Origin: Marinomonas sp. PE14-40
GTDB lineage: Bacteria; Pseudomonadota; Gammaproteobacteria; Pseudomonadales; Marinomonadaceae
Reading direction: 5' to 3'
Assembly (NCBI RefSeq): GCF_051623805.1
Contig: NZ_CP130700.1
Coordinates: 2,658,047-2,682,046 of the forward strand
DNA length: 24,000 nt
Shown: in pieces, positions 5,211-24,000 of the stretch
Layout of the letters: each line of letters starts with the position of its first letter
Position numbering within the stretch: the first letter of the stretch is position 1
The notes under the pieces: model-generated
The model's input: only the letters and a program-made list of their open reading frames with translations
Told to the model about the DNA's origin: nothing
Databases searched by the model: none
Position numbers and translations under genes: made by a program

Positions 5211-5286
5211 GTCCTCATAGGTAAACAGGATATACCTGCCGCCTCCTAAGCGGCTATTCCAGGTTCGAGTCCTGGTGAGGACACCA
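5211..5286 (+). tRNA. tRNA-Arg (anticodon CCT)
   Basis: A 76-nt cloverleaf folded by hand. Acceptor stem GTCCTCA/TGAGGAC; D arm GGTA-AACAGGATA-TACC; anticodon arm GCCGC-CTCCTAA-GCGGC (anticodon CCT); 4-nt variable loop; T arm CCAGG-TTCGAGT-CCTGG; discriminator A; encoded CCA. Confidence 0.9.
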
Positions 5287-5403
5287 TCTCTAATTTATTT
5301 CTCCCCAATTAAACCCAACCTTTTCACTTTCTTTACAATTCACTGAACTTTTTATATACCAGAATGTCCTAACTGAAGTTATTAAATTTCTCTGGATAAG
5401 CTA

Positions 5404-7094: not shown

Positions 7095-7158
7095 CCCAAT
7101 GAAAGCAAACAAGTAATAACAAAGATACTTAGCTGCATAATTAATTTGAGACACATGT

Positions 7159-8949: not shown

Positions 8950-8953
8950 ATCG

Positions 8954-9469: not shown

Positions 9470-9484
9470 TTTCAGGATATTTAA

Positions 9485-10222
9485 ATGTGCACTCTTAGCT
9501 GGCTTAAGACCAATACTGGATATGAAGTATTTTTTAATCGTGATGAACAAAGAACACGATTAATTGCTTCTTTACCTGAGCGCTATAAAACCGCAACAGG
9601 TAACGAGTATATTATGCCAACAGACCTTAATTCAGGTGGTAGCTGGATAGGTGTTACCGATTCTGGAGTTGGTATATGCTTATTAAACTTCTACCAAGGT
9701 ATAACCCCTGAGGCTGATTTAATTAGCCGTGGACTACTCGTAAAGGATCTTCTGAGCCTTAGCAAGGCTGACAAGGTACTAAACCATATTAAGCACCTCA
9801 ACTGCCAGCATTATGCGCCTTTTACCTTAGTCATATTTGTGCCTGATCAAGCTCATCCTATTAGCGTTTGCTGGGATGGCATTCAATTAACAGACCTTAT
9901 TATTGAATCGCCATATACCTCATCTGGTGTGGAGTTCCCTCAAGTTTCACAAGCAAGGCAAGAGACTTTTAGACAATACTTCCAAGACAGAGAAGCCTGT
10001 ATCGAACATCTGAAGGCTTATCATGCGTCCCATTATCCTGAAAAATCAAAATGGTCTGTCTGTATGCATCGAGAAGATGCCTGCACAGTGAGTTTTAGCC
10101 ATATGTCTATTCAAGAGTTTAGCAGCACCTTTGATTATATTGATGGCTCACCCTGCCAGCACAATGCAACAAGATCCTCTATTAGTTTGGACAGAATTAG
10201 TCTGATGTCAGAAACAGCCTGA
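9485..10222 (+). CDS. NRDE family protein (TANGO2-like, Ntn-hydrolase-like with Cys2)
   Basis: 245 aa. The N-terminus MCTLSW...VFFNRDEQRTR contains the eponymous NRDE motif and a Cys at position 2. Confidence 0.75.
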   Translation: MCTLSWLKTNTGYEVFFNRDEQRTRLIASLPERYKTATGNEYIMPTDLNSGGSWIGVTDSGVGICLLNFYQGITPEADLISRGLLVKDLLSLSKADKVLNHIKHLNCQHYAPFTLVIFVPDQAHPISVCWDGIQLTDLIIESPYTSSGVEFPQVSQARQETFRQYFQDREACIEHLKAYHASHYPEKSKWSVCMHREDACTVSFSHMSIQEFSSTFDYIDGSPCQHNATRSSISLDRISLMSETA

Positions 10223-10272
10223 TGCTAAAAGCAAGCGATTAGAAGCAAGATTACAGAATAAATTTAAGACAC

Positions 10273-10298
10273 AAAAAAAGGCCATAAGGCCTTTTTTT
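10273..10298. terminator. Bidirectional rho-independent terminator between convergent genes
   Basis: AAAAAAA-GGCC-ATAA-GGCC-TTTTTTT. A short GC stem is extended by A/T-run pairing, with T-runs on both strands. It lies between the NRDE gene (+) and the OsmC gene (-). Confidence 0.7.
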
Positions 10299-10331
10299 AT
10301 TAGCTAGTAAGCTTGCGAATAAAGCGGCTAA

Positions 10332-10736
10332 TTAAGCTTCTTTAATTTCAAAACTATGTACTATCTTAACGCCGCCTTTTTCTAGCATTAAAGAAGCAGA
10401 ACAATATTGCTCAGCAGACAGTTTTACCGCTTTTGCCACAGCAGATTCTTTTAACTTGCTGCCTGTTACTATAAATTTAACGCGGATTTCAGTGAAAACA
10501 GATGGCACAGTGTCAGCTCTATCTGCATCAATTTCAGCGACACAAGATACGACATCCTGACGGGCTTTTTTAAGAATATTCACTACGTCATAAGAGGTAC
10601 AACCGCCAAGGCCTGCCAACAATAGCTCCATTGGTCTCGAACCTTTTTCTTGGCTACCGTCCATCTCAATAGAAAAACCCGAGCCAGTCTTAGCTGTAAA
10701 ATGTACGTCTTGGTTCCATTCAACTGTCGTTTTCAT
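10332..10736 (-). CDS. OsmC/Ohr family protein
   Basis: 134 aa. The OsmC-family pattern is present (MELLLAGLGGCTSYDVVNILKK ... SAEQYCSAS, with two conserved Cys). Its start lies 3 nt after the trpC stop. Confidence 0.75.
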   Translation of the reverse strand: MKTTVEWNQDVHFTAKTGSGFSIEMDGSQEKGSRPMELLLAGLGGCTSYDVVNILKKARQDVVSCVAEIDADRADTVPSVFTEIRVKFIVTGSKLKESAVAKAVKLSAEQYCSASLMLEKGGVKIVHSFEIKEA

Positions 10737-10739
10737 TGT

Positions 10740-11564
10740 CTACCCTTCAAATAATTCTGCTAATTTTGCCCCAGGTTCGTTAGCCTTCATAAAGGCTTCC
10801 CCGACCAAAAAGGCATTAATATCTTTTTCTCTCATTGCCGCCACATCATCACTAGTGTGGATTCCACTTTCAGTCACAATAAAGCGATCTGCAGGAATGT
10901 AAGGCAATAATTCAAAAGTATTCTCTAAGCTCAATTCAAACGTATGTAAATCACGGTTGTTAATACCCAACAACTCAGTTTCAGTAAATTCTAAAGCAAG
11001 GTCTAACTCAGCTTTATTGTGTACTTCAACCAATACGTCCATACCTAATTCACGAGCTAGTTGGTCAAGCGCTCTCAGCTTTTCACCAGACAAACAAGCA
11101 GCAATTAAAAGAATGCAATCGGCACCAATCGCTCTTGCTTCATAAACCTGATATTCATCCACAATAAAATCTTTGCGAATCACAGGTAAGGAGCAGGCAT
11201 TTCTAGCTTCTTCCAAATAGTCCTCATGGCCTTGGAAAAAATCTCTATCGGTTAAAACAGACAGGCAAGCTGCCCCACCTTTCTCATAAGACTTAGCAAT
11301 TTCGGCCGGAACAAAAATCTCTCTCAACACACCTTTACTCGGTGATGCCTTTTTTATCTCAGCAATAACGCCTGAATCACCTTGAGCAACTTTCGCTTTT
11401 AAAGAAGCAGCAAAACCACGAACACGATTATGTGAATTCGCTGCAGTGACAGCCACTTTTAATTTATCTAAGGGTGTATGATTTTTTCGCTCAGCAATTT
11501 CTTCATACTTTCTAGCAACAATTTTCTTTAATATTGTTGGCGTTTCAATTTGCATATTAACCAC
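10740..11564 (-). CDS. trpC: Indole-3-glycerol-phosphate synthase
   Basis: 274 aa with canonical motifs [29 protein letters not shown] and LVEVH. It lies downstream of trpD. Confidence 0.9.
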
Positions 11565-11576
11565 AATTCCTAAAAT

Positions 11577-12611
11577 TTAGTTATCTAGATAGCATTGTGT
11601 AAATGCTGCTAGTTCAGTTAGTTTCACTCGCGCTAAGCCACCGCCAATAACATCTTCTGCGATAGCAACACCTTCAGCTAGATCATCTGCAATACCCGCT
11701 ACATAAATAGCAGCACCGGCATTTAGAGCGACAATATCACGAGCAGGATTAACCACACCTTTACCTTCTAATGCGCTTTGCACCAACTCTAAACTCTCAT
11801 CAACATTCTCAGCTTGTAAAGGCATGATAGATTGAGTTTCAATATTAAAATCTTCTGGCTGAATACTGTATTCACGAATTTCATTGTCTTTAAGTTCAGC
11901 AACAAAAGTCGGTGCAGCTAAACTAATCTCATCTAGCCCATCTTGAGAGTGAACAACCATCACATGCTCACTGCCTAAACGCTGAAGTACTTCGGCCATA
12001 GGACGAACCCACTTTTTATCAAACACGCCCATGACTTGGCGTTTAGTGCCAGCAGGGTTTGTTAGTGGTCCAAGTAAGTTAAAAATGGTGCGAACAGCCA
12101 TTTCCTTACGAGGTACTATAGCGTGCTTCATTGCAGAGTGGTGATTAGGCGCGAACATAAAGCCTAAACCCACTTCTTCAACACAGGTTTTCACCTGCTC
12201 AGCAGACAATGCTAGGTTTACACCAGCCTTTTCCAATAAGTCAGCACTACCTGATTTTGATGACACTGAACGGTTACCATGTTTGGCAACCTTGCCACCA
12301 GCTGCCGCCACAACAAAAGACGATGCTGTAGAGACATTAAACAACTTGCCACCATCTCCACCCGTACCACAGGTATCGATAATATTATCAATATTTGACA
12401 ATTCGACTTTAGAAGACAACTCACGCATCACACTTGCAGCAGCGGCAATTTCAGCAACTGTCTCACCTTTCATGCGAAGGCCGACTAGAAAGCCACCAAT
12501 TTGTGACGGTGTCGCTTCTCCAGTCATAATTGCATGCATGACTTCATGCATTTCTTCTGCACTTAAATGCTGCTGTTCGATGACAGTGGCAATGGCGCTT
12601 TGGATATCCAT
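11577..12611 (-). CDS. trpD: Anthranilate phosphoribosyltransferase
   Basis: 344 aa with motifs DTCGTGGDG, FNVSTASSFV, KHGNRSVSSKSGSAD and NLLGPLTNPA. Confidence 0.95.
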   Translation of the reverse strand: MDIQSAIATVIEQQHLSAEEMHEVMHAIMTGEATPSQIGGFLVGLRMKGETVAEIAAAASVMRELSSKVELSNIDNIIDTCGTGGDGGKLFNVSTASSFVVAAAGGKVAKHGNRSVSSKSGSADLLEKAGVNLALSAEQVKTCVEEVGLGFMFAPNHHSAMKHAIVPRKEMAVRTIFNLLGPLTNPAGTKRQVMGVFDKKWVRPMAEVLQRLGSEHVMVVHSQDGLDEISLAAPTFVAELKDNEIREYSIQPEDFNIETQSIMPLQAENVDESLELVQSALEGKGVVNPARDIVALNAGAAIYVAGIADDLAEGVAIAEDVIGGGLARVKLTELAAFTQCYLDN

Positions 12612-12619
12612 TATGTCTC

Positions 12620-13198
12620 CTATCGCTTTAAAAAATTAGCAAGCAGATCATGTCCTGCTTCCGTTAATATTGATTCTGGATGAAATTGCACCCCTTCAAT
12701 CGGAAGGGTTTTATGTTTGAGTCCCATTATTTCATCTAACTCGCCCGTACATCCTTCAGTCCATGCCGTTACTTCTAAACACGCAGGCAATGAGGCTTGC
12801 TCTACCACCAATGAGTGGTAACGAGTAACAAGTTGAGGATTAGGTAACGATTGGAACAATGACGAATCCGTGTGATGTACCGATGATGTTTTTCCATGCA
12901 TTACTTGTTTGGCACGAACCACTTTACCACCAAACACCTGCCCAATACTCTGATGCCCTAAACAAATACCTAAAATAGGTATTTTTCCAGCAAAATACTC
13001 AATCGCAGCCAATGACACACCCGCTTCATTCGGTGTACAAGGTCCGGGAGAAATAACTAAATGGGAGGGGTTCAGTGCTTCAATTTTCTCTAGGGTAATT
13101 TCATCATTACGATAGACTTCTACCTCAGCACCTAGTTCCCTAAAGTATTGTACTAGGTTATATGTAAAGGAGTCGTAATTATCGATCATTAATAACAT
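12620..13198 (-). CDS. trpG: Anthranilate synthase component II / aminodeoxychorismate synthase glutamine amidotransferase
   Basis: 192 aa class-I glutamine amidotransferase: [19 protein letters not shown], catalytic GICLGHQ and FHPES. It is first in the trpG-trpD-trpC run. Confidence 0.9.
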
Positions 13199-13558
13199 AA
13201 ATAGTTCAAGCCATTGAAACTAAAGGTTTTGTTTAAATAACATGTTTGAGTTACCCCTATTATCACCCCTTTCAAACACTTGAATACAGATAAATAATGA
13301 CGTATTGGCGCGGATTTTATCTTATTTATCATCGTAACTCTAACACTAGATTTGTATTTCAATATAGCTGCAAAGCCTAAAATTAACTCCCTCTTTTAAA
13401 ACGACATTCATTTATCAAAAAATCCAGCCATGCCTGTATAGCAGAGCTTTCAACAGCTTAAGAATGACTAAACAAAGAAGGGATAAATTTAAAGGATAAT
13501 ATGAGGAAGATATAAGGCTGATATAACTAAATACCAACCATTTATCTTTGAAAAAAGC

Positions 13559-14299
13559 CTATTTTAGCAGCGGAGCGAGTTTACCCGCTTGCTCACTGGC
13601 TTGAGTACTTGCTTGGCTGTAACTTGAAGATTGCATCGGCGGGGAAGTTGTCCCTGCACCACCTGGATCACTCCATGAATACGAATGGTTATGAGAGCTT
13701 GCCACATTCGCAAGGTCAGCCACGGTATTCATTAAATCATGCAGCAGACGATAGATATTCGTCGACTCATCTCCCACATGATGCTTGGTCGCAATAATTT
13801 CACGTAGTTTGCCAATTTGCTCGGTTAAGTCATCCTCTATGGTGAGCTTGCTACTTTTGCCTTTCACTTCCCATTCATTATCTTGATTAACTTGAATATA
13901 CGCCTGCTCAGACTGCTGCCACCTTTGATCTGTCTCCGCCATATTAGGCAGTTTCAAACCATGGGGGAAAACAGAGCGTACAAAAGGATGGGCGGGGGAG
14001 CCATACATAAAGGCAATTTCAACCAAGGTACCAAGACTTGGCTTTGACCAGAAACCTCTCTGTTCTCCACCTGCATTCACAGGTAAAAGCACATCTTCCA
14101 GAATCGGCAACTCAGTGTCTTCCTCACCATTTACATCTAAAAGCTGTACTGAAACAGAATAAACAGGAGCTTCTTCTGTCACAACCTCACCTGCCAAAGG
14201 GGTTAAAATATCCGTTACTTTCGCCCACATAGGCAAATGCCAACCTGAGGCTAACTCAGGATATTTCTTTTGCATTAATCGCGTTAAGGCTTTTTCCAT
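13559..14299 (-). CDS. Baseplate central spike protein (gpV / Mu gp45-like)
   Basis: 246 aa. The N-terminal part looks like an OB-fold spike (WAKVTDIL...YSVSVQLLD...LPILEDVLLPVNAGGEQRGFWSKPSLGTLVEIAF). The C-terminal HNHSYSWSDPGGAGTTSPP fits the H-x-H...GG..T..P apex motif of phage spikes. The call is made from motif memory, not a search. Confidence 0.55.
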   Translation of the reverse strand: MEKALTRLMQKKYPELASGWHLPMWAKVTDILTPLAGEVVTEEAPVYSVSVQLLDVNGEEDTELPILEDVLLPVNAGGEQRGFWSKPSLGTLVEIAFMYGSPAHPFVRSVFPHGLKLPNMAETDQRWQQSEQAYIQVNQDNEWEVKGKSSKLTIEDDLTEQIGKLREIIATKHHVGDESTNIYRLLHDLMNTVADLANVASSHNHSYSWSDPGGAGTTSPPMQSSSYSQASTQASEQAGKLAPLLK

Positions 14300-14970
14300 G
14301 ACACCACCATTTTTGCTTCCTGCAATCTCACGCTATAAAGACGATTCCCATTAAGCAGGTAACCCGGCCTTAAACCCGGAATCGCCATTAATTCAGCGCT
14401 TTGAGTTGATAACTGTTTATCCAGTACAGCTGTTGGCACCTCTACGGGAGCATCGATCCAATGACTATCAGACCAAGCACCAATATAAATAAGACCATCT
14501 CGCTTTTGCTGCCAAGTAAAATCCTCTATGCCAAATACTTGGGCGATTTTATTTAGCAGATGAAAGCCAGAACCCGTATTAACAAAATAAGGCACAGGGG
14601 TAGAAGCATAACTGGACTGAGGTAAGCTAAAGCCACAACCCGTTATCGCTTTCACCTCTGTCAGTAAATCCTTGAGTGTTTTATTGCGTAATGCCAAAGG
14701 CACACGCATGCTCAACACATTAGACTTTTCTCGACAAAATAGGGTTTGAGACTGATTTGAAGCAGGCGTCGAGCGCTCAATATAACCATAAAAATGGCCA
14801 TGCTCTTGTCCGTTATTAATCCCAAAACTGAAATAGACAGACCCTGTTAAGGCTTTCTCAGACTGCACCACAAAGGATGCACGGCCAGCGGCCATCGCAT
14901 CCAATGCAACATCATGAGAAACCAAATTCACTCGCTTGCCATTAACCTTGAGCACAAAGTTATATTTCAT
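14284..14970 (-). CDS. Putative baseplate hub protein (gp27/gpD/VgrG-N-like, short)
   Basis: The pattern KYNFVLKVNGKRV...ASFVV...HFYGYIERST...LFCREKSNVL...LALRNKTLKDLLTEV resembles the N-terminal region of hub/gpD-like proteins. The preferred start is the ATG at 14970, preceded by AAGGA; the track start is 14985. Confidence 0.4.
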   Translation of the reverse strand: MKYNFVLKVNGKRVNLVSHDVALDAMAAGRASFVVQSEKALTGSVYFSFGINNGQEHGHFYGYIERSTPASNQSQTLFCREKSNVLSMRVPLALRNKTLKDLLTEVKAITGCGFSLPQSSYASTPVPYFVNTGSGFHLLNKIAQVFGIEDFTWQQKRDGLIYIGAWSDSHWIDAPVEVPTAVLDKQLSTQSAELMAIPGLRPGYLLNGNRLYSVRLQEAKMVVSWKKP

Positions 14971-15508
14971 TCCTTGTCCCCTCATCGGCTAGGGCAGAAT
15001 CCAAGTACTTGAGCACATTCTCCAGCCAATTACTGGTTTCGCTGTTCTCAGCTTCTGAGGCAACACTGGTATCCGCTGTCGCCATCTTAGGCTCATTTTG
15101 CGTAAGCTTCATGGCTTCCACTTTTTCAGGGATAGAGAGGTGTTCGACCAAGACAAAAGACACAGACCAGGCTTGATCATCATCCAGCTCTTGCGCCGAC
15201 ACCTTGTCGCTAAAGCGTACTTGTCGAACAGAAAAAGCTCTCGCCGTTTGGTTTTCTATGTTGTAAACCAAACGGGTACCTTTATCTTCATCCAAGGCCG
15301 TACTTAAACTCACAATATTGGCAAGCTCAGACGCATCGTCATATTTCACCTTCATCGCCACACGAAGACGTTTAGGCTTAAATCCCTTCTCAGCCGTAGC
15401 CGAAGAAGAGCTTTGACCAGACAAGTCCTCCTCTGGCAAAGCTAATTCACACGTCACCTTCACCCCATAGCCTGAGATTTTAGTATCGTTGAGAATAAGG
15501 GTAATCAT
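14960..15508 (-). CDS. Phage tail/baseplate-associated protein of unknown function
   Basis: 182 aa. Its start is coupled to the upstream gene stop by an ATGA overlap. It has an acidic C-terminal tail. Only the context (between the fibre chaperone and the hub) supports a structural role. Confidence 0.3.
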   Translation of the reverse strand: MITLILNDTKISGYGVKVTCELALPEEDLSGQSSSSATAEKGFKPKRLRVAMKVKYDDASELANIVSLSTALDEDKGTRLVYNIENQTARAFSVRQVRFSDKVSAQELDDDQAWSVSFVLVEHLSIPEKVEAMKLTQNEPKMATADTSVASEAENSETSNWLENVLKYLDSALADEGTRNEI

Positions 15509-16017
15509 GGGGTTTCATCCATACTAGCGACAACTTCAACCTCATCATTCAAAGCTGCAGGCCAAGGGTTTTGAGCTTGAATACTCGCACGCTCCTCCAC
15601 GGCCAGATCCATCAAACGAGCATATTCATCACTCTCACCAAGGTGAGCTTTAATCTCTGCCTCTTCAAGAAGCTGGCGCACTCTAGCGGTATAAGCCGCT
15701 TGTCTTGCATCATCAACAGCTTGATAAGCATCTTGGTAATCATCTTCAGCATTTCGAACACGCCAAACATCATTATCTTTAACCAAAGTATCGTTGAAGT
15801 GGCATTCTAACGCCTGCCAGTTTTTATTCGACACAATATGCTTTCTGCTGTATTCATCAATAAAGAAAGACGTCCTTTCTTCTATTGTCATATCAAGGCA
15901 CTTCACACCATCAAAACGTAGTTTAGTAATATCAACAGAACTTTCCAATTCAATATTATGGGTTTGAACTTGAGTGGTACGGCCTATAACTAGGTCATTA
16001 TTTAAAATTGCAAACAT
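15505..16017 (-). CDS. Putative tail fibre assembly chaperone (Tfa-like)
   Basis: 170 aa. Its start overlaps the stop of the 308-aa fibre gene (TAATG). The C-terminal helical region ending ...IQAQNPWPAAL recalls the L..W..Y...L...WP..P ending of Tfa/gpG-type chaperones. Confidence 0.4.
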   Translation of the reverse strand: MFAILNNDLVIGRTTQVQTHNIELESSVDITKLRFDGVKCLDMTIEERTSFFIDEYSRKHIVSNKNWQALECHFNDTLVKDNDVWRVRNAEDDYQDAYQAVDDARQAAYTARVRQLLEEAEIKAHLGESDEYARLMDLAVEERASIQAQNPWPAALNDEVEVVASMDETP

Positions 16018-16943
16018 TAGACAATCTCCGCTTTGATGTATGAAACAAAATCAATATGAGTCCAATGCCATTGGCAGTTAAAATAAACATTGCCAGATTC
16101 ATTAGTAGAGCTAAGAACTGCTGTTCGTTTTTCTCGCTTCATAATGGCGCCCTTCTCAGCTACGTTCGCTGTTTTATATTGGTAACCCCCACTATCCTTT
16201 CCAACATGAAAGCGCTCAGAAGAGTATAAAAGCTCTTCATCCAAACTAAGTATTGCGTATCCATGTCCAACACTTGTAGACGAATTAAGAAATTGTGTTT
16301 TAACACGAATATTAACTCTTCGAGCAAAACCGTGATCTATTTCTAAAGACATCAAATCTTGTGTGCCGCTAATCAAATAAGAATCCATAGTCTCAATAGC
16401 TGCAAATTCTCCTTTAGGAATATCAGATACGTTTTTATAAACTTTCAAAACACCACTTTTAAATTCAGCAAGAAGTAGATCGTCATAACTTGTATCAAAG
16501 GCGGTTTCAAAGTCTTCCAATGAATCAGGGTTATATTCAACATCCGACAAATCTTTAAGATAAAAACCATCTGTTAGATTAAATCGCAAATGGTAAGTTT
16601 TGGTATCATTGATCGAAAAGGTGCGGACTGCATAATCAGAAGTATTGATTTCTAACCAGCCATAAAGCCTGATGATTTGATTCGCTTCGATAGTTAACAC
16701 CGAGCTGTCTAACGTCATTGCTAACCTGCTATCATCTGACATAACTTCAGGGTAAATAGGCAGTTTTTTAACTTGCTCAAAGGTGTCGGTTTTAACATAT
16801 TGGGTGTGGGCATCTGCTTCAGATAAATGATCTGAAATGGCCTGCTCAGCATCTTGGCGCACAGTTTCAAATGACTCTTTAGCCAGGGTCATATCCGCAG
16901 TCGCATCACCTAATGCATTAATGGCATCGAGTATTTCACTCAT
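16017..16943 (-). CDS. Receptor-binding tail fibre protein 3 (shared N-terminal adaptor motif, unique C-terminus)
   Basis: 308 aa. The N-terminus MSEILDAINALGDATADMTLAKESFETVRQD aligns without gaps to the N-termini of the 296-aa and 284-aa proteins. SEADAHTQYV resembles the H-x-x-x-x-(D/N)-(P/A)-H fibre motif. It is followed by a chaperone-like gene. Confidence 0.5.
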   Translation of the reverse strand: MSEILDAINALGDATADMTLAKESFETVRQDAEQAISDHLSEADAHTQYVKTDTFEQVKKLPIYPEVMSDDSRLAMTLDSSVLTIEANQIIRLYGWLEINTSDYAVRTFSINDTKTYHLRFNLTDGFYLKDLSDVEYNPDSLEDFETAFDTSYDDLLLAEFKSGVLKVYKNVSDIPKGEFAAIETMDSYLISGTQDLMSLEIDHGFARRVNIRVKTQFLNSSTSVGHGYAILSLDEELLYSSERFHVGKDSGGYQYKTANVAEKGAIMKREKRTAVLSSTNESGNVYFNCQWHWTHIDFVSYIKAEIV

Positions 16944-16964
16944 AATAATTCATCCTTGAATTAA

Positions 16965-16986
16965 CCTAGGCTTAAAGAAGCCTAGG
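16965..16986. other. Perfect 9-bp stem-loop in the gap between fibre genes
   Basis: CCTAGGCTT-AAAG-AAGCCTAGG. On the plus strand it is followed by TTTGTTTATT (terminator-like). On the minus (coding) strand it is followed by TTAATTC (weaker). Confidence 0.5.
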
Positions 16987-17012
16987 TTTGTTTATTAGCT
17001 ACTTATAAAATT

Positions 17013-17903
17013 TTATAAACGAGTTTTTCCGTAATACGCGATAGAACGAGGTCGAGTCTCATATCCACCATCAGAGCCTGATTCAGAAGAACCTTGTGCA
17101 GTACCTCCCCCCCAATACATCTGATAATTATGAGCTCCACCTACATCGTTATAGGCATGCAATGTGTGTGAATGAGATTCGAACTCATCTTCTTGCCAGC
17201 TTCCAAAGACACGATCAGTATCAACACCGCGCCCATCATCAAACATACGGATAAATTCACCACCGACTATGGGCAAGGTAAAGGTGGTCGAACCATCCCC
17301 TTCACCCCAAAAACCACCATAGGTAATAGGGTCAGCATCTTTGGTGGCTTGATCAATGAGGTTTGAGGTGTTTTTGATTTTGGCCCAAGCAATCGCGAAC
17401 TCAGCTCGATTAAGCTCTGCACCATTTAATGCCACCTCCCCTATGCTAAGCAGATCCGTGGTATCGGTAACTAGCTTGCCAATATCTGCAACAGCATTAC
17501 CTGTCTTAGCGTTAATCTGTTCAATCACATAAAAAGCAGTGCCGTCATAACGCACTTTGACTAAAGCCTCCGCAAAGAGCTGACTAGCAGCGGTCACATT
17601 AACAATACTTTTTGCCCCTTGAGCATTCACATCAAGTGATACCAAGGCCTCATCATTTGTATTTGATATGATGAGGCTTATTTCATCACCCGCTGCTAAA
17701 TCAGAAACAATGGCCGTTGACGTCACAGTCAATGTATTTTTACCAAGCGCTTGTGCATAACGTTCCAAGTTACGTAGCGTTTGAATCGACTCAGCTAAGG
17801 CGCCTTGATAGCCATCATAGATGGATTCAAATACTTCTTTTGCTTGTACTAGCTCTTCTGTTGCATCCTTCATTGCCACTAAAGAGTATGTAAAATCACT
17901 CAT
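17013..17903 (-). CDS. Receptor-binding tail fibre protein 2 with C-terminal phage Tail-Collar domain
   Basis: 296 aa. It has the shared N-terminal motif MSDFTYSLVAMKDATEELVQAKEVFESI. The C-terminal TFTLPIVGGEFIRMFDDGRGVDTDRVFGSWQEDEFESHSH...GYETRPRSIAYY matches the Tail-Collar domain pattern (LPDLRGxFxR...GRG.D..R..GS.Q.D....H...ETRP.N). Confidence 0.7.
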   Translation of the reverse strand: MSDFTYSLVAMKDATEELVQAKEVFESIYDGYQGALAESIQTLRNLERYAQALGKNTLTVTSTAIVSDLAAGDEISLIISNTNDEALVSLDVNAQGAKSIVNVTAASQLFAEALVKVRYDGTAFYVIEQINAKTGNAVADIGKLVTDTTDLLSIGEVALNGAELNRAEFAIAWAKIKNTSNLIDQATKDADPITYGGFWGEGDGSTTFTLPIVGGEFIRMFDDGRGVDTDRVFGSWQEDEFESHSHTLHAYNDVGGAHNYQMYWGGGTAQGSSESGSDGGYETRPRSIAYYGKTRL

Positions 17904-17950
17904 TTTTAAATTCCTTTTAACTTTCAGCTTTCAACTTTTTTAAGCTGTAT

Positions 17951-18220
17951 TTATAACTCGTTATCAGTTAGCGGATATCTCGCTTTTATTTCTGCAACCT
18001 TGTTACGCCATGTTTGCTCAGCTTCTGGTGTATGATCGAACTGCCATTCCATATAGAGAAGGTCTGATTCTGATTTATAAGCGGCGAACCTAAAAGCCTT
18101 CTGTTTTTCATTAAAACCTATAAGAAGAGCATTATTATTAATTCCAGTTTTATTTAAATCTTCCTCCAGCCAGCCTATAAACTGTTTTCCACCAACATTC
18201 ACATTTATTTTTCCTGTCAT
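17951..18220 (-). CDS. Small hypothetical protein following fibre gene 1 (possible chaperone/accessory)
   Basis: The track ORF begins with GTG at 18229, directly abutting the upstream stop. An ATG at 18220, preceded by TAGGTGAT, is the likelier start (MTGKINVNVGGKQF...). No recognisable motif was found. Confidence 0.4.
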   Translation of the reverse strand: MTGKINVNVGGKQFIGWLEEDLNKTGINNNALLIGFNEKQKAFRFAAYKSESDLLYMEWQFDHTPEAEQTWRNKVAEIKARYPLTDNEL

Positions 18221-18229
18221 AAAAATCAC

Positions 18230-19084
18230 CTATATTGATAGTAAATATGCACCACTTCCAGGAATTTGTAGTGGCTTTAAGTCACTGGAAAACAAGCTTG
18301 TTTCTGCATCTAAAACACACGAATAGGTATTCAAAATAACAAAACAAGATAAATTTCCATCTATTAAAGAGAAGTTATTTTGTATAGATTCTGACGTATT
18401 TAGCTTTGTCATACCGACAAAACTGAAGGTTGAGCCAATTTTGTGATCACCAGTATGATAAGCGGCCTTAACAATCGATTTTAAACTAGGTGAATCATTA
18501 AAAATATTAACTGGATAATAGCCACCGAACTGGACACTCCCTCCATAGCCATAAACTAATGAGTCATTAGTTCGTGAAGATTCAATGTAAATGTTAAAAT
18601 CATACGGATTAGCAAATTTTATAGAGCCACCGCTCCTCACAATAAAGCCACCACCATCAAATACTTTTAAACCATTACCAGCACCATCATTTGAAAATAA
18701 AATAATATTTTTTGATGTAGCCTCAAGGCCAGTATCAACTGGATATAATAAAGGGCCCCCATTATCATCCGTAATGAGCATTAACTTTATTGCTCCCAAA
18801 GCACCTTCAGGTATCAAATTAAATGCCTTATCAAGTGTTTTAAGTGGGCTTGATGAACTTAAACCTGAATTTAAATCGTCTCCGTTATGCGATACATAAA
18901 GCGTCACGTCCATCACAGAGCTAATTACCTCATTTACATCTTGAGATAGCTGGCTTACGAAATTAGCCAATTCAGTCGCAGATGAGTCAACATCTGCTCG
19001 AATATCTTCAAAAAGCTCTTTCGCTTCCTTCATTTCAGACGCAGCTAGCGTTAACGCTGCTGTCGCTGTGCTTAGTTCACTCAT
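18230..19084 (-). CDS. Receptor-binding protein 1, tailspike-like (possible parallel beta-helix)
   Basis: 284 aa. It has the shared N-terminal motif MSELSTATAALTLAASEMKEAKELFEDIRAD. Then LYVSHNGDDLNSGLSSSSPLKTLDKAF matches the yVs..G.D.n.G....P.kTl..A entry motif of pectate-lyase-fold beta-helix proteins. Gly/Asn-rich repeats follow. Its start overlaps the stop of the 190-aa gene (ATGA). Confidence 0.5.
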   Translation of the reverse strand: MSELSTATAALTLAASEMKEAKELFEDIRADVDSSATELANFVSQLSQDVNEVISSVMDVTLYVSHNGDDLNSGLSSSSPLKTLDKAFNLIPEGALGAIKLMLITDDNGGPLLYPVDTGLEATSKNIILFSNDGAGNGLKVFDGGGFIVRSGGSIKFANPYDFNIYIESSRTNDSLVYGYGGSVQFGGYYPVNIFNDSPSLKSIVKAAYHTGDHKIGSTFSFVGMTKLNTSESIQNNFSLIDGNLSCFVILNTYSCVLDAETSLFSSDLKPLQIPGSGAYLLSI

Positions 19085-19653
19085 AGCTTCCCTTCCAAGG
19101 TTAATAATCTTTCATGATTTTTAATGGCGCTTGATAAAGCGGATATGGTCGCTGCGCTGTTTTGCATTATGCTGGTTTGCATAGCGAGCATTTCTGCTTC
19201 GTAATCAAACTGCCAAGATTCCAGTGGCAGATCTGCACCCGTCAACTGCTTCGCATTGCTAAAGGGCACGACTAAATTGCGGTTAATCACCTGCCCTATA
19301 TCTTTTCGCTTCTTATTCAGCGGAATATAGGAATAGGCTAATAACTCACCTGAGTCAGTGACTATGCCGTAATAATTGAAGTCATAATCACCCACACTAC
19401 TGTCTAGTACCAGTGAGTAAGTCACCGCATTGTCATCGTTATAATGAGGGTCTTGAACAAGGATATTGCCACCCACTAAATAACTATTATCTGGAATACC
19501 AGCCGCAGCATCTGCTGGTGTGGTTTCATCCACACCTGGTACATTAGCCAAGATAAAGTGGGTGACCACCACAGGTTCTAAACTCGCGGCTTTTTGGGCA
19601 ATGTAGCGTGCCCCTGCATCTGTTACTGTTCCACTTACTATATCTGTCATCAT
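19081..19653 (-). CDS. Short tail fibre proximal (collar/baseplate-attachment) protein, DUF3751-like
   Basis: 190 aa. The N-terminus GTVTDAGARYIAQKAASLEPVVVTHFILANVPG resembles the tail-collar fibre N-terminal domain of P2 gpH-type fibres. It ends in a helical segment (EAEMLAMQTSIMQNSAATISALSSAIKNHERLLTLEGKL) with no distal domain. Confidence 0.55.
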   Translation of the reverse strand: MMTDIVSGTVTDAGARYIAQKAASLEPVVVTHFILANVPGVDETTPADAAAGIPDNSYLVGGNILVQDPHYNDDNAVTYSLVLDSSVGDYDFNYYGIVTDSGELLAYSYIPLNKKRKDIGQVINRNLVVPFSNAKQLTGADLPLESWQFDYEAEMLAMQTSIMQNSAATISALSSAIKNHERLLTLEGKL

Positions 19654-19659
19654 TCGTCC

Positions 19660-20289
19660 TTAAATTGCATTTATCCTATCTTCGCTTCGTTCAATAAAGT
19701 GCTGAGCGATACTTGCCTTAGCAGGCTCTGTCGTATCAGCAAATACATATTCCGTTCGTCCACTTATTTGCTCTACCCCTCTATCAATACCAAAGCTAAA
19801 TCCCTCTACGGCTATGGATTCAATAGCATCCACCATCAAAAATTCATAACGGCGACAGGTTCGGCCATATTGGCGGATAATGTGATGAGCAAGCTCTGGA
19901 TTTTGGGTCAAGCTAGAGTCAGCCAACCAAAGAGTAATGACATCCCAGTCACTTTCACTGTCTCTTTCAATTTGTCCATATAAAGGCACATCAAAGCGAG
20001 CAAGAACCTCTTTAAAGCCTCCTTTACTGCCCGCATCTATGGCATTTTTCACCCCGTGTTTTACACGTTTACGAAAGAGCTCATCTGGTTCATCAGCAAA
20101 TCGGTCAATATCATTTTGATACGCCAAAAGCTTAAGCACATACACATGGCAGGTCTCGGCATCGAGCTGATTGAGTGGCGTCTTTATCCAGTCTTCCGTT
20201 TTATCCCAAAAGGTCACAAAAGCATCCGCTAGCTTGTTAATTTCTTTGCCTTCTCGAATCCATACAGGCAATTCAAATTTAGCAACCAT
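19660..20289 (-). CDS. Baseplate wedge protein, P2 gpI-like
   Basis: 209 aa, directly after the gpJ-like gene. LKLLAYQNDIDRFADEPDELFRKRVKHGVKNAIDAGSKGGFKEVL resembles the gpI pattern (L.wLAw...vd.W....e..KR..i..a...hr.KGT). Confidence 0.5.
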   Translation of the reverse strand: MVAKFELPVWIREGKEINKLADAFVTFWDKTEDWIKTPLNQLDAETCHVYVLKLLAYQNDIDRFADEPDELFRKRVKHGVKNAIDAGSKGGFKEVLARFDVPLYGQIERDSESDWDVITLWLADSSLTQNPELAHHIIRQYGRTCRRYEFLMVDAIESIAVEGFSFGIDRGVEQISGRTEYVFADTTEPAKASIAQHFIERSEDRINAI

Positions 20290-20291
20290 AA

Positions 20292-21485
20292 CTAACCCTC
20301 TTGCACACTGAGTGAGGCCAAACGTGGGATTTCAAGTTCAGCGCTTATGTGGCTTCCAATCACTTCTTCCCCATCAGTAATGGCCTTAAAATCAATACTT
20401 TCTATCTCAGGGAAGTTTTGATAAACCTCACTGGCTAAGCGAGTAAAAGAAAATCGTGAATAAGGCTGAGTTTGAGTCATTACATAAGCCGAATTTGACC
20501 TAAAAGCCGCTTCAATCGCCTGCTCAATACCAGTCAAACTAGCTGCCTTTTCTTCCGCCGTTAATGCCACAGGAAAGTAAACAGTGACACCAAGGTCTAC
20601 TAACAAATCAGGTACTTTCTTAACCTCTAAATCATCACCATGACCGTGATAGCCTTCATCTCTTATCATGCGATTAATAATCTCTAGATAACTGTCAGCA
20701 GGTGCATCAAGTTCGAACAAAACATAAGCGTCAGCCGCTCCTGGTACCACGCTAGTTCCACCTCTTTTCACACCATGTTCAAACCAAATCATGTCAGTGG
20801 AAACACCAGCAAACTTCGCAATCAAATGTCGATATACCCCATCCGTGTGATAATGACTTAAGGAGTTAAAAGCATTACGAATGCGTAAGCGATATGCTTC
20901 AATATCTTCATCATCATCTCCTACCACTTGAATCCAACTATCAGGGTTCGTCACAGTGACACCTTGGATATCACAGTTCACATACTGGCCAGTTTCCAAG
21001 TTATACGCCTTGCCTTCTGCTACAGCGCGAACTGGCACACTAATCGAGTTATCATCTTTACCCAGCACGATTGGATAAGTTGTTTCCAGTTCATAAACAA
21101 TGTCATTCAAGGGCTCGGTACGAATCCGTGTACCAAGCGGAATCTCAATATCTCCCTCTTGTCCTGCTCGAGTAAATTGCAACCGACCCTCTAGCCGTTG
21201 AGCTTTTTTTCGCTCCACCCCATAATTGTTACCCCACAGGTCAATAAAACCCTCTCCAACTGTCTTTAAAAAAAATTGTGGCATCACAGTTTGAACCAAA
21301 GCATTCACTAGCCAGATCACAGGCTGAATCGCGACCGCTGAGATCAAGCGCCAAAAAGGGCTATAGGCAGAATCATTACTGATTTTAGAGCCAGAGTCGG
21401 TCACGGTTTGCTTAAACGCCGCCTTAATCTCAGCTTCGGTAATGGGTACACCTTCATCCTTTAATAGGCTTTCAAATTCCTTCAT
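20292..21485 (-). CDS. Baseplate J / gp47 family protein
   Basis: 397 aa. Size, position (after the gpW-like gene, before the gpI-like gene) and general sequence character match baseplate J-like proteins. Its start overlaps the upstream stop (ATGA-type coupling). Confidence 0.65.
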   Translation of the reverse strand: MKEFESLLKDEGVPITEAEIKAAFKQTVTDSGSKISNDSAYSPFWRLISAVAIQPVIWLVNALVQTVMPQFFLKTVGEGFIDLWGNNYGVERKKAQRLEGRLQFTRAGQEGDIEIPLGTRIRTEPLNDIVYELETTYPIVLGKDDNSISVPVRAVAEGKAYNLETGQYVNCDIQGVTVTNPDSWIQVVGDDDEDIEAYRLRIRNAFNSLSHYHTDGVYRHLIAKFAGVSTDMIWFEHGVKRGGTSVVPGAADAYVLFELDAPADSYLEIINRMIRDEGYHGHGDDLEVKKVPDLLVDLGVTVYFPVALTAEEKAASLTGIEQAIEAAFRSNSAYVMTQTQPYSRFSFTRLASEVYQNFPEIESIDFKAITDGEEVIGSHISAELEIPRLASLSVQEG

Positions 21486-21793
21486 AGGGTTACCTCTATC
21501 GCTTCGTTATTTAACGTACGTGCACTACAGTTAAGTGCTTCCCCTATTAACGCCACCTTGGCCGTCCCTGGGTAAATACGTGTATCGTTTTCCATTTCAA
21601 TTTCTACCTGAGTGGTGAGAGTGGCCAGTTTTACCTGGCTTCTCTCACCTATCATGCTAAAGGCATAACCTTTTTCTCTAAGCATGTGTCTTAGGTCTTG
21701 TGCTATACAAACTGCCTCTGCCCTAAGCTCAGGTTCTCCCAATAGGTTTAGTACCAAGTCATCATCTATGATGCTTAAATCTATGCTGTCCAT
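21482..21793 (-). CDS. Small baseplate protein (gpW/gp25-like, DUF2590-like)
   Basis: 103 aa. IDLSIIDDDLVLNLLGEPELRAEAVCIAQDLRHMLREKG fits the DL....GDL......G.P......I.QD..H pattern of small baseplate wedge proteins. It lies between the tape measure and the J-like gene. Confidence 0.45.
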   Translation of the reverse strand: MDSIDLSIIDDDLVLNLLGEPELRAEAVCIAQDLRHMLREKGYAFSMIGERSQVKLATLTTQVEIEMENDTRIYPGTAKVALIGEALNCSARTLNNEAIEVTL

Positions 21794-23436
21794 TAGCCCA
21801 CCTGCATTTCCATTTCATGGGCCAATTCATCACCACGTACCCCTTGGCCATAATTATTCACTTCAATTTTTTCCACATGGCTTTGCTTACTGGTACTGGC
21901 AAATAGGTTGCTGAAAGATTGAAATAAGCCGCCTTGCTCACCCGTCTGAGATGACTCTGCCCCTGGTAAGGTTAGGTTTGCACCTTGTGCCATACCTTGC
22001 TCGGCAACTTTTTGTGACAAGCCCTGATTTGCTTGTATATCAGGGCTAGCATCCACACCCGGTAACCAACTGAACTTATTTTTAATCCAGTCAGCCGACT
22101 CTCCGATAAAGCCAAAAGGATTCAAACTAGTAAGCCAATTTTTTAGCTCACTCCAAGCACCTTTGATGGTTTCTATAAAGGCAAAATCAAAACTCATGTC
22201 AGGCATCAGAGATAACTCACCCAGCCAGACTTGAAACTCTCCCCACCATTGCGGAATTCGATCAAATACGCCTATCAAAAGATCAACGATTTCAATCACG
22301 GCATAGAGAGGAAAGAAGGCTAATTTAAGCCATTCATTGTCACTAAATAGCCCTTTAATAAAGCTAAAACCTTGGCTTAACGCAGAGAAAACCCAATCCG
22401 TAAAACGCCCTATGGCAGCACTCACCTCATCCCAGTAAACCACCATGGCGACTAGCGCAGCGATCAAGGCTGTGATACCCACCACAATCCAAGTAATCGG
22501 ATTCGCCAATAAAGCAGCGGTAAAACTCCAAATAGCCGGCAAGCTTGTGAGTACACCGGCTTTTAGAGAGGTAAATAACCCCATCAACAAAGGCCCAGTC
22601 GCCACCATTGCTTTCATAGCACCATTAAGAATCCAAACACCGGCGGCTTGTAATTTAAGCAGAGGCGTAATAACCAGATTCTTGACTAACCAATTTTGCG
22701 ACAGCGTTATGGCATGGCTTTTAGCTAAATTGAGCATTTCCTGAGCGACCCCCACCATATTAATCACTTCCATCATGGAGCCCAATGCCTGCTCTGCTGT
22801 ATTTACCCCTTGCGCAAGACTTGGATACTTGTCAGCCCAGCCATCAAGGCTTTTCCCCATGGCTTTTACCTCATCAATATAAGGACTTAACATGGGAGAA
22901 AGCTGTGTCATCAAGTTGCCAGAAAGCGCCTGAACTTTAGTATCCAATGCTGGCCAAAGCGCCAGTTGCTCATTCAAGCCTTGCTTCAATGTAGAAAAAG
23001 AATCCGTGTAAGCCGAGATATTCGATTCTCCGAATACACGGCCCATAATATTGTCACCACTTAAGGTTTTAAGGCTGGCAACCTGCCCTTTAATCTGCCC
23101 TAAACTGTCATGTAAAATCTGTAGTTTGGAGCTTGATTCGCCCGCGATATCAACAGAAGCAATAACCGAATTTGTTGTCACACCGCTGGAGAGATCGACT
23201 TGACCGGCAGCATTTTTTGTCGCATCAGACACGCCCATGCTAGTTATCAAGTTCTGTACTTCTAGCGTTAAGGTATCTAAACCTGCGGTTAGGCTTAAAA
23301 CCGCTTGATAAGGTGCCTCAAAGACAGTTTGCATTTGCTTCACTAACACTTGAATCCCGTTTTGAACTCCCTCAAGAGAGCTCGGAAACTGATTTAGCTT
23401 GCCAAGGCTTAGCTGTAATTTTTCAAGAGCTTCCAT
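21793..23436 (-). CDS. Tail tape measure protein
   Basis: 547 aa. It has a long helical N-terminal region and a central block of hydrophobic helices (…VITPLLKLQAAGVWILNGAMKAMVATGPLLMGLF…ITWIVVGITALIAALVAMVVYW…). It lies immediately downstream of the chaperone/frameshift pair. Confidence 0.8.
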   Translation of the reverse strand: MEALEKLQLSLGKLNQFPSSLEGVQNGIQVLVKQMQTVFEAPYQAVLSLTAGLDTLTLEVQNLITSMGVSDATKNAAGQVDLSSGVTTNSVIASVDIAGESSSKLQILHDSLGQIKGQVASLKTLSGDNIMGRVFGESNISAYTDSFSTLKQGLNEQLALWPALDTKVQALSGNLMTQLSPMLSPYIDEVKAMGKSLDGWADKYPSLAQGVNTAEQALGSMMEVINMVGVAQEMLNLAKSHAITLSQNWLVKNLVITPLLKLQAAGVWILNGAMKAMVATGPLLMGLFTSLKAGVLTSLPAIWSFTAALLANPITWIVVGITALIAALVAMVVYWDEVSAAIGRFTDWVFSALSQGFSFIKGLFSDNEWLKLAFFPLYAVIEIVDLLIGVFDRIPQWWGEFQVWLGELSLMPDMSFDFAFIETIKGAWSELKNWLTSLNPFGFIGESADWIKNKFSWLPGVDASPDIQANQGLSQKVAEQGMAQGANLTLPGAESSQTGEQGGLFQSFSNLFASTSKQSHVEKIEVNNYGQGVRGDELAHEMEMQVG

Positions 23437-23457
23437 GTTTTACCCCTAGCTACTTCC

Positions 23458-23670
23458 CTATTTGCCTGCAAAGGCCTTGGCAATACCATTGGCAATGGCT
23501 GCCGTTTCCCTCTTCATTTCTCGCTCTTCTAACCAAAGCGCCCGTCCTAGGCTTTCCGGTTCATCATCTTCATGAGGAAGCCAGCGCATCCTCAAGGTTA
23601 CGAGTTGCTCGAAGCCATTTTTGTCGATGCTGTCCCGGAACGCCTGCGCAGCTTTACCACCGTAGGCAGA
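23458..23670 (-). CDS. -1 frame extension ORF of the tail assembly chaperone (gpT / GT-like)
   Basis: By hand translation the -1 frame is open from 23670 to a TAG at 23460-23458. It overlaps the last roughly 24 codons of the chaperone ORF. It continues ...DKNGFEQLVTLRMRWLPHEDDEPESLGRALWLEEREMKRETAAIANGIAKAFAGK* and ends 21 nt before the tape-measure ATG. It has no ATG of its own. Confidence 0.5.
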   Translation of the reverse strand, partial: SAYGGKAAQAFRDSIDKNGFEQLVTLRMRWLPHEDDEPESLGRALWLEEREMKRETAAIANGIAKAFAGK

Positions 23671-23924
23671 TCACTGGAGAATTCGTCGGTTAGAATACCC
23701 ATCACATCCATGACCAATTTGGCTTTTGGCTGTGAATCTTCATTCACCATCAAGGCTTTCAAGCTTGCATGCTGCTCACTTTTAACCGTTGACGACAAAA
23801 GGTTATAAGCAGGCAAAACCGTTTGGCCTTTCGCCATGGCATCAACAAACTTGTTGTATTCTTTGTCTGTTACCTTAAATTCAAAATCTGTATCACCTAT
23901 GGTGATTTCAATTAGCTGTGCCAT
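23598..23924 (-). CDS. Tail assembly chaperone (gpG/gpE-like)
   Basis: 108 aa small acidic protein directly upstream of the tape measure. It has a strong AAGGAG ribosome-binding site and an overlapping -1 frame ORF (previous feature). Confidence 0.6.
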   Translation of the reverse strand: MAQLIEITIGDTDFEFKVTDKEYNKFVDAMAKGQTVLPAYNLLSSTVKSEQHASLKALMVNEDSQPKAKLVMDVMGILTDEFSSDLPTVVKLRRRSGTASTKMASSNS

Positions 23925-24000
23925 CTTTACTCTCCTTGTACTTGTTTCTGAGCCAATTTTAAGTGCTCTCGTTTAAACCAAAAATTGGTTAAAAATGTTG

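Follow-up and report, generated by a model that had tools for sequence, protein, structure and literature searches.

A head-less contractile tail cluster of HP1-like ancestry in Marinomonas is probably an R-type tailocin

A run of contractile-tail genes ends just before the trpG-trpD-trpC operon in a stretch of 24,000 nucleotides from Marinomonas sp. PE14-40 (contig NZ_CP130700.1; the whole stretch is referred to below as the window). Comparison with related strains showed that the window carries the distal 10.4 kb of an element of 28 genes and about 21 kb in total. As judged from its genes and their order, this element is a domesticated HP1-like prophage (Peduoviridae) that arose by an independent domestication, and we consider it likely to be an R-type tailocin. 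The original prediction had proposed a candidate tailocin, formed by independent domestication of a phage tail at the trpE-trpG interval. A candidate of this kind was recovered in five lineages as a head-less cluster with tail and lysis genes and an S24 regulator, fibre swapping was seen between strains, and the ancestor was HP1-like, but the trpE-trpG address was not borne out.

Gene content and phage ancestry of the head-less cluster

The part of the element that lies beyond window position 24000 was examined in strain SBI22 (L001/L092), a Marinomonas metagenome-assembled genome (L002), metagenome contigs (L007/L008), a MED121-like strain (L091/L093/L098) and a divergent lineage (L115/L116); the tail genes of L001 and L002 are 91-96% identical to those of the window. 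Upstream of the tail assembly chaperone gene, these relatives carry, in this order, a holin, a 141-aa membrane protein, an Amidase_2 protein, the tube (HP1_Orf24), the sheath (Pfam DUF2586; phrog_907 at 4e-110) and gpR, so that holin, membrane protein and amidase form a lysis cassette between tube and chaperone. Past gpR follow a 595-aa DUF7217 coiled-coil gene on the opposite strand, a DUF4262 gene, an alpha/beta-hydrolase esterase gene and Ogr/Delta, and the outer end of the element is occupied by a P2-type replication endonuclease (GPA), a 181-aa protein (p181) and a divergently transcribed S24 repressor. This head-less layout of 28 genes was common to the five lineages, in all of which the sheath and tube, the holin and amidase, and the LexA/CI-like S24 regulator that had been predicted beyond position 24000 were present.

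Neither portal, terminase, scaffold, capsid, head-completion gene, gpS/Neck1 nor integrase was found in the element in the gene tables of the five lineages. A tblastn search of the element with the head proteins of Pseudomonas phage phi3 revealed no head-gene remnants either, whereas the same queries matched every complete relative. For PE14-40 itself, protein clusters at 90% identity provided the accessions of the amidase (XYG96356), sheath (XYG96358), esterase (XYG96362), Ogr (XYG96363), p181 (XYG96365) and S24 (XYG96366) proteins; the spike is XYG96339 and the DUF2590 protein XYG96350. The series XYG96339-XYG96366 is gap-free and fits 28 genes with zero spare slots, and from sheath to Ogr there are just four coding-sequence slots, which correspond to gpR, the DUF7217 gene, DUF4262 and the esterase. 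This run of accessions is tight, though indirect, evidence for a head-less content in PE14-40.

The relatives of the element among complete phages are HP1-like. Its sheath is 42% identical to that of phage phi3 (Peduoviridae, HP1-like, NC_030940) and 59-77% identical to those of five IMG/VR contigs (L099-L103), the nearest complete phages being L099 and L100 (sheath 77%, tube 86%). Directly before the sheath, the complete relatives carry portal and terL (both on the minus strand), scaffold, capsid, terS, the head completion gene Ad1, gpR and gpS/Neck1, and their lysis genes are located between tube and chaperone. The last structural gene of phi3 encodes a spike/baseplate protein that is homologous to the spike of the element, and the sequence stretches retrieved for L101 and L103 have hub/ORF34 genes at their far ends. 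By comparison with these relatives the element is missing the integrase, cox/cro-cII, six head genes and gpS; the integrase, lysogeny switch, head module and gpS of an intact HP1-like temperate phage are therefore absent from it, while they were found in phi3, in L099-L103 and in a prophage resident in the same genomes (L089, described below).

The intergenic region of 330 bp between the DUF7217 gene and gpR matched the divergent terL-scaffold intergenic region of L101 (31 bp, 90%, E = 5.6e-6), and L102 and L103 matched it at the same position. This homology indicates that head genes have gone from both sides of a retained late promoter region. As a DUF7217 gene adjoins terminase-side genes in L089 too, the 595-aa gene is probably what is left, in enlarged form, of the late operon that ran leftward. 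The deletion is thus unusually clean, comprising the head genes that flanked the divergent late promoter on either side, plus the head-joining gpS. A tail architecture different from that of the pyocins had been noted in the original prediction; the gene order does differ from that of R-pyocins, but it is simply the known HP1-type order.

Two further observations concern the site of the lost gpS. A 200-bp gap just upstream of the sheath gene (L001:7215-7414), where complete relatives have gpS/Neck1, contains a strong inverted repeat (CGCTAGGGCT GGAGT AGCCCTAGCG) with no U-run after it, which may act in the processing or stability of the RNA. The adjacent gpR evolves at a much higher rate than the genes around it: SBI22 and the MED121-like strain (L001:6747-7214 vs L093:2977-3444) share 70% identity in gpR and 93% in the sheath, and identity to L099 (L099:7840-8271) is 49% in gpR and 77% in the sheath. 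Having lost both the head and its partner gpS, gpR may be adapting to their absence.

Selection on the element and its tail genes in the window

Ratios of nonsynonymous to synonymous divergence (dN/dS) were obtained as Nei-Gojobori estimates. The 20 genes of the L001-L002 comparison all had dN/dS values between 0.00 and 0.27, and the same range applied to the window against both; examples are 0.14 for GPA, 0.06 for the esterase and 0.20 for the DUF7217 gene; comparing the window with L001 and L002, we obtained 0.10-0.14 for the tape measure and 0.02-0.03 for the Tail_P2_I gene, and the Baseplate_J gene gave 0.04-0.08. Between SBI-like and MED121-like strains, the flanking genes for TssM, a histidine kinase and a response regulator are saturated (synonymous divergence, dS, of 1.7-2.8), while sheath, tube, amidase, S24 and GPA showed dS values of 0.7-1.1 with dN/dS of 0.02-0.11. 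Long-term purifying selection on a cluster that has neither head genes nor integrase is a signature of domestication, and such a cluster, kept intact by selection in several lineages, is very probably a tailocin.

These data also bear on the view that the element is what remains of a defective prophage in decay, now functionless, whose head genes simply happened to be deleted first. The lack of integrase and head module would fit such a remnant, as would a premature stop in the tube gene of one lineage and the variation between strains of both the 96 bp after the spike gene and the right junction. We regard it as very unlikely nevertheless, given that all 28 ORFs (open reading frames) are intact in four of the five lineages and that dN/dS stays at 0.0-0.27 throughout, even at a synonymous divergence of about 1; neutral decay should have left stops or frameshifts over that much divergence. 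Moreover, what was deleted is precisely the genes for the head and for its joining to the tail, and the late promoter that lies between them was left in place. The tailocin reading accommodates these features: the element has the sheath, tube, chaperone, tape measure, baseplate, spike and fibres of an R-type tailocin by Pfam and PHROG, though no gpS homologue; it has no head or packaging genes and a lysis cassette of its own; and its ORFs are maintained by selection while its fibres diversify, with the tube of L115/L116 as the exception.

Selection was accompanied by signs of exchange between strains. Between PE14-40 and SBI22 (L092), dS was 0.10-0.33 in element genes (window 13559-21485) and 0.41-1.04 in the adjacent core genes (9485-13198), with values of 0.41-0.74 for trpGDC and OsmC. 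Within the element, dS formed a mosaic that ranged in one strain pair from 0.09 in the esterase gene to 2.0 in gpR. Both the lower dS of the element and this mosaic suggest recombinational exchange of element segments between strains.

The ORFs of the window were taken from a six-frame listing and assigned to families by Pfam and PHROG scans. Fifteen tail ORFs follow one another on the minus strand in an unbroken run from 23924 to 13559; the dense packing on the trpGDC strand that had been claimed for 14 genes was confirmed for 14 ORFs of at least 92 aa, to which one small ORF of 45 aa is added. All features described in this paragraph and the next lie on the minus strand. The last 74 bases of the window (23927..24000) hold the 3' part of the holin gene, which continues beyond the window edge; its translation (TFLTNFWFKREHLKLAQKQVQGE, followed by a stop) is the C-terminus of the L001 holin, which matches Pfam Phage_holin_2_1 and the holin family phrog_20. 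Next comes the tail assembly chaperone, a gpE analogue (23598..23924; Pfam Phage_TAC_10, E = 3e-9), of which identical copies exist on 11 public contigs. The 45-aa ORF that follows (23458..23595) belongs to DUF6890 (L001 homologue with PF21830; 46% identity to phi3 gp26) and is probably a frameshift extension of the chaperone, analogous to gpE'. The tape measure protein of 547 aa (21793..23436; PHROG tape-measure families, E = 7e-13) precedes three baseplate proteins, namely a DUF2590 protein in the position of gpW (21482..21793; Pfam DUF2590, E = 3e-21), a Baseplate J-like wedge protein (20292..21485; Pfam Baseplate_J, E = 6e-20) and a gpI-like protein (19660..20289; Pfam Tail_P2_I, E = 5e-6).

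The fibre genes begin with a conserved N-terminal fibre protein that anchors to the baseplate (19081..19653; Pfam Phage_tail_fib, E = 3e-21). It is followed by a strain-specific receptor-binding protein of 284 aa in slot 1 (18230..19084), whose first 23 residues are common to the slot-1 proteins of other strains, and by a 92-aa ORF (17951..18229) that matches phrog_5714 and phrog_2432, both of unknown function, and is possibly a chaperone. Slot 2 is occupied by a receptor-binding protein of the tail-collar fibre type (17013..17903; PHROG tail fibre/tail collar fibre, E = 1e-24) with the N-terminal adaptor motif, slot 3 by a protein with the N-terminal motif MS[ED]..A..A...AKE.FE (16017..16943; phrog_17588). 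A tail fibre assembly protein (15505..16017; phrog_3916, E = 6e-8), an HP1 ORF34-type baseplate complex protein (14960..15508; Pfam HP1_ORF34, E = 1e-42) and a baseplate hub protein (14284..14985; baseplate family phrog_2258, E = 2e-58, N-terminal half of the profile) lead to the central spike, the last gene of the element (13559..14299), which matches phrog_4011 at 6e-56, the C-terminal half of phrog_2258 and, weakly, the OB domain of Phage_base_V.

Each locus thus encodes three fibre-like proteins, which share the N-terminal motif over about 30 residues, with M1, S2, A10, A14, A21, K22, E23, F25 and E26 as invariants (window 16017-19084; L092:4780-8370; L002:14841-18349). In slot 1, residues 1-23 are kept and the remainder is replaced outright between strains, giving proteins of 284 aa in PE14-40, 328 aa in SBI22 and MED121, and 408 aa in L002, the last with a weak FGE-sulfatase match. 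No nucleotide match to window positions 18082-19008 was found in L001 or L002. Fibre swapping between strains, for which the original prediction had proposed to look, was in this way observed past residue 23 of slot 1 across PE14-40, SBI22 and L002. A cassette of three receptor-binding slots with a shared N-terminal adaptor would be a natural scaffold for retargeting.

Regulation, replication genes and predicted induction

The S24 repressor has a helix-turn-helix domain, an Ala-Gly site, a GDSM serine motif and a downstream lysine, and three operator-like palindromes (GAAC-N5-GTTC) lie within 70 bp in the 213-bp divergent region between S24 and p181 (L007 9270-9339). By analogy with lambda CI, PrtR and P2 Ogr, an induction cascade may be envisaged in which DNA damage would activate RecA and thereby set off self-cleavage of the S24 repressor, the motifs and palindromes of which are seen in the sequence. 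The early operon p181-GPA-Ogr(-esterase-DUF4262) would then be derepressed, and Ogr, as in P2, would turn on the late promoter, the region of which is the one that shows homology to the complete relatives. A single long late transcript would run from gpR through sheath, tube, amidase, membrane protein and holin to the spike, ending at the hairpin behind it. Finally, holin and amidase would lyse the producer and release head-less tails, the targets of which would be set by the swappable fibre set.

The retention of a phage replication initiator over a long time is the one truly unusual feature of the element; in the literature searched, no tailocin is described as retaining replication genes. 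Purifying selection acts on both GPA and p181 (dN/dS 0.10-0.14). Protein A of P2 initiates and terminates rolling-circle replication by means of two tyrosines, Y450 and Y454. The active-site motif, Y-x-x-K-Y (residues ~406-410 of GPA), was found in 100 of 101 homologues; the second tyrosine is replaced by histidine in the copies of SBI22 (L001:912-2660), L002, L003, L007 and L008, and it is retained in those of the MED121-like strain (L093:7532-9280) and L115 (L115:10001-11743).

There is a weak case that GPA is needed in cis, either for late expression or for copy amplification in situ. A more specific proposal is that of a "replicating tailocin", in which expression of the late tail genes after SOS induction would require the non-excising locus to be nicked or amplified in situ, and GPA and p181 would be kept for that reason. 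A template that does not excise needs no termination or religation, so the second tyrosine of the YxxKY motif could become histidine in one sub-clade while purifying selection persisted. We consider this proposal rather doubtful. If it were true, replication or read-through could reach trpGDC where the spike gene abuts trpG. In any case, the retained initiator offers a handle on whether late expression of the P2/HP1 type is coupled to replication.

The same genomes harbour a second, apparently complete P2/HP1-like prophage about 106 genes (~90 kb) from the element, represented in PE14-40 by XYG96472 (P0006). On a JGI contig (L089; 3300002038 BIB22012_10000008, 34458-56197), this prophage carries an integrase, an S24 repressor, cro, CP76, a p181 homologue, GPA (64-65% identity), Ogr and terminase, as well as a TIR-domain gene and an M78 peptidase gene; the stretch ends at the terminase.

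A replicating, helper-dependent element could have kept GPA, the origin and Ogr for cross-talk with such a P2-like prophage, supplying it with tails or being amplified or mobilised by it. The selection on GPA and p181 and the presence of a second GPA-carrying prophage in the same genome would agree with this, and Ogr-family activators act in trans between P2 and P4. Exactly the genes required to join heads and tails are missing, though (head completion Ad1 and gpS/Neck1), and excision is not expected as there is no integrase, excisionase or att site. The change of the second GPA tyrosine to histidine in several strains also argues against full rolling-circle cycling, and we judge helper dependence to be unlikely.

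Several points weigh against the R-type tailocin that we favour. Its function is predicted from genes in every carrier strain, and the layout of PE14-40 to the right of position 24000 was deduced from accession order together with relatives that are 91-96% identical. The element lacks gpS, which P2 needs for its tails, so tail completion without gpS is an assumption. To our knowledge, R-pyocins carry no replication genes, and the purifying selection on GPA and p181 sets the element apart from the tailocins with which it was compared and leaves room for phage-like or satellite-like behaviour. A search for the P2-type Ogr box (TGT-N12-ACA) gave three matches in L001, where 5.6 were expected, and none in an intergenic promoter region. 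Finally, the tube gene of L115/L116 has a nonsense codon at position 76 (SWQ*LGVF) in two independent assemblies (L115:17539-17988; L116:9670-10119), although T6SS (type VI secretion system) flank and head-less layout are as in the other lineages. The element is therefore not maintained everywhere, and it is probably inactivated in this lineage.

Chromosomal address and comparison with known systems

The left flank of the element (the S24 side, beyond window position 24000) was the same in all five lineages and consists of genes for a response regulator, a histidine kinase and a PpkA-like Ser/Thr kinase, followed by TssM, TssL, TssK, TssJ and FHA (L007:1-8093; L093:10926-20747; L115:1-7377). 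In MED121, this T6SS is cluster #1, MED121_07350-07465 (PMC2702493). The element always adjoins the two-component system and the T6SS, which would place two contractile weapons side by side. Neither trpE nor an integrase was present in the left flank of any lineage examined. In none of them does trpE follow the regulator on the far side, where it had been looked for, and the cluster does not lie in a trpE-trpG interval, its left bound being the regulator, kinase and T6SS genes.

The T6SS neighbourhood raises the question of an extracellular contractile injection system of the Afp, PVC or MACs type, directed against eukaryotes or put to another use, for which the esterase, DUF4262 and 595-aa DUF7217 coiled-coil genes could be read as cargo. 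Yet the genes and their order agree one for one with those of an HP1-like myophage; among the Pfam families of the 28 proteins there is neither an AAA+ ATPase of the Afp15 type nor a toxin-cargo family, and sheath and tube have no Afp-type paralogues. Since a holin-amidase cassette and phage-type collar fibres are present as well, and fibre swapping between close strains is a tailocin or phage pattern, this use of the element appears highly unlikely, and we retain the R-type tailocin.

The right flank (spike/trpG side) is variable. In the window, the spike stop at 13559 and the trpG start at 13198 leave a gap of 360 bp, as originally predicted. SBI22 has a right flank identical to that of the window, with trpG next to the spike. 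Behind the spike, the MED121-like strain carries 10 kb or more of LysR, HalD, M24, MR_MLE and BCCT genes (L091:10856-20741), in which no trpG was seen, and its homology to the window ceases exactly at the spike stop codon. In L107 (28-390) and L108 (3-663), a gene for an SMR transporter, not the spike, lies upstream of trpG; the trpG-proximal region of L107 is near-identical to that of SBI22, and that of L108 to that of PE14-40. The 264 bp before trpG in the window (13199..13462, minus strand) are 97-99.6% identical to the trpG-proximal 264 bp of L106-L108, which places the junction between element and host DNA at about 13462/13463 and identifies this segment as the native trpG upstream region. 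L106, a viral-fraction metagenome contig, begins exactly at this junction. The remaining 96 bp, a tail on the element side after the spike stop (13463..13558, minus strand), are shared only with SBI22 and not with L106-L108 or the MED121-like L091.

The gap had been described as free of a convincing terminator. A terminator scan located a terminator-like hairpin there that closes the tail operon 19 nt past the spike stop (13516..13539, minus strand; 9 pairs, -15.2 kcal/mol, z = -3.9), though its U-tract is poor in PE14-40; the counterpart in SBI22 is richer in G-C pairs and is followed by a U-run. A second candidate hairpin (13395-13470) was rejected, its folding being no better than that of shuffled sequence (z = -0.3).

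No att-like direct repeat of at least 11 bp links the ends of the element, the longest shared word being a T-rich one of 10 bp, and no tRNA gene lies at either border. The element shows no sign of mobility, as is characteristic of R-type tailocins, having neither integrase nor att and occupying one left-flank site across diverged hosts. Its conserved anchor is the T6SS side, and the contact with trpG is a lineage-specific junction.

The host operon trpG-trpD-trpC lies outside the element on the same strand as the tail genes (10740..13198, minus strand; trpG 12620-13198, trpD 11577-12611, trpC 10740-11564; Pfam GATase, Glycos_transf_3 and IGPS, E = 1e-64 to 1e-97). As had been stated before, trpE is absent from the ORFs of the window while trpG, trpD and trpC are contiguous, and no integrase, capsid or packaging gene separates the last tail gene from trpG; by ORF listing, Pfam and PHROG, none of these occurs anywhere in the window. 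The neighbourhood of trpE was sampled in genomes fetched with a TrpD query, where the matches listed included other Marinomonas species at 73-77% identity and none from the clade of PE14-40. In Oceanospirillum, Halomonas, Alcanivorax, Methylophilaceae and others (L013-L044, positions ~7500-9400), trpG is directly preceded by a TrpE-like ORF. In four element-free Marinomonas species (L009-L012), MgtE, MscS, gph, rpe, DUF3530, DjlA and LptD genes were found upstream of trpG, the genes nearest to it reading rpe-gph-MscS-MgtE-trpGDC, and no TrpE-like ORF was detected within 10 kb of trpD. Given that element-free Marinomonas lack trpE near trpG, trpE was already split from trpGDC in the genus, independently of the element. 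A search with MgtE of M. aquiplantarum and the cluster listing yielded no orthologue from PE14-40, SBI22 or MED121, and the region upstream of trpG was too diverged among Marinomonas species to be aligned for a comparison of leaders.

Collectively, these results do not support the proposal that trpE-trpG is a tailocin hotspot across lineages, as the split of trpE and trpG predates or is independent of the element in the genus and the contact with trpG is variable. The hotspot of Pseudomonas cannot be extended to Marinomonas, and a tempting generalisation is thereby corrected.

Elsewhere in the window, the sole Rfam match is a tRNA at 5211-5283 (tRNA-Arg CCT in SBI22). This tRNA and five genes (encoding a VTT-domain protein, a 374-aa protein, an acyltransferase, DinB_2 and a TANGO2-like protein) lie between FlgN and OsmC at 5211-10222. 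The FlgN-OsmC interval of four other Marinomonas species does not contain them, and the segment looks like a small tRNA-adjacent island.

The element resembles the R-type pyocins of P. aeruginosa in being a fixed, head-less contractile cluster with a lysis cassette, variable fibres and an S24-type repressor (PrtR-like) that would act via an activator, and, in some strains, in lying directly upstream of trpG. It differs from them in its HP1-like rather than P2-like origin, its DUF2586 sheath and its gene order (gpR-sheath-tube-lysis-tape measure-baseplate-fibres-hub-spike). Its activator is Ogr (Ogr_Delta) and not PrtN, GPA and p181 are kept, and the far flank is the T6SS/two-component cluster instead of trpE. 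Accordingly, the trpE flank, the PrtR/PrtN pair and the P2- or Mu-type order of the Pseudomonas trpE-trpG locus were not found. The R-syringacin of P. syringae is said to be a Mu-like myophage tail co-opted independently at trpE-trpG; the element is similar in representing an independent co-option of a different myophage tail, but it has another phage ancestor and does not reproduce that address.

The element is collinear with HP1-like phages (phi3, L099-L103), gene for gene, over the stretch that starts with gpR and ends with the spike; the lysis cassette separates tube and chaperone in both, and some relatives also have the same GPA/Ogr early module. Unlike these phages, it is devoid of integrase, cox/cro, portal, terL, scaffold, capsid, terS, Ad1 and gpS; at 547 aa, its tape measure falls short of the 684 aa found in phi3, and the element adds the esterase, DUF4262 and the enlarged DUF7217 gene.

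Within the genus, M. mediterranea MEDPRO2 is a chromosomal, head-less R-type bacteriocin of ~13 kb with holin and lysin (PMC10870725). It has been shown experimentally that its particles of ~153 nm are released after mitomycin induction and kill other Marinomonas strains (PMC10870725). MEDPRO2 follows the P2/R2 order (baseplate, sheath, tube, tape measure, gpD last), with an XRE regulator and a lysozyme, and its authors report no replication genes (PMC10870725). Both are head-less tail clusters on the chromosome of the same genus, the one described here being known from its genes; however, at 21 kb, with HP1 order, S24 and Ogr, an amidase and a retained GPA, it is unrelated to MEDPRO2. Literature searches for an HP1-like tailocin, for a tailocin with Ogr and replication genes and for a description of the MED121 prophage returned nothing relevant besides the T6SS coordinates. 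Tailocins are well known, and one has already been shown in M. mediterranea; the element adds an independent domestication from a different phage lineage, and what is new in it is an HP1-like domestication with a DUF2586 sheath, held at one site in several species-level lineages of marine Marinomonas.

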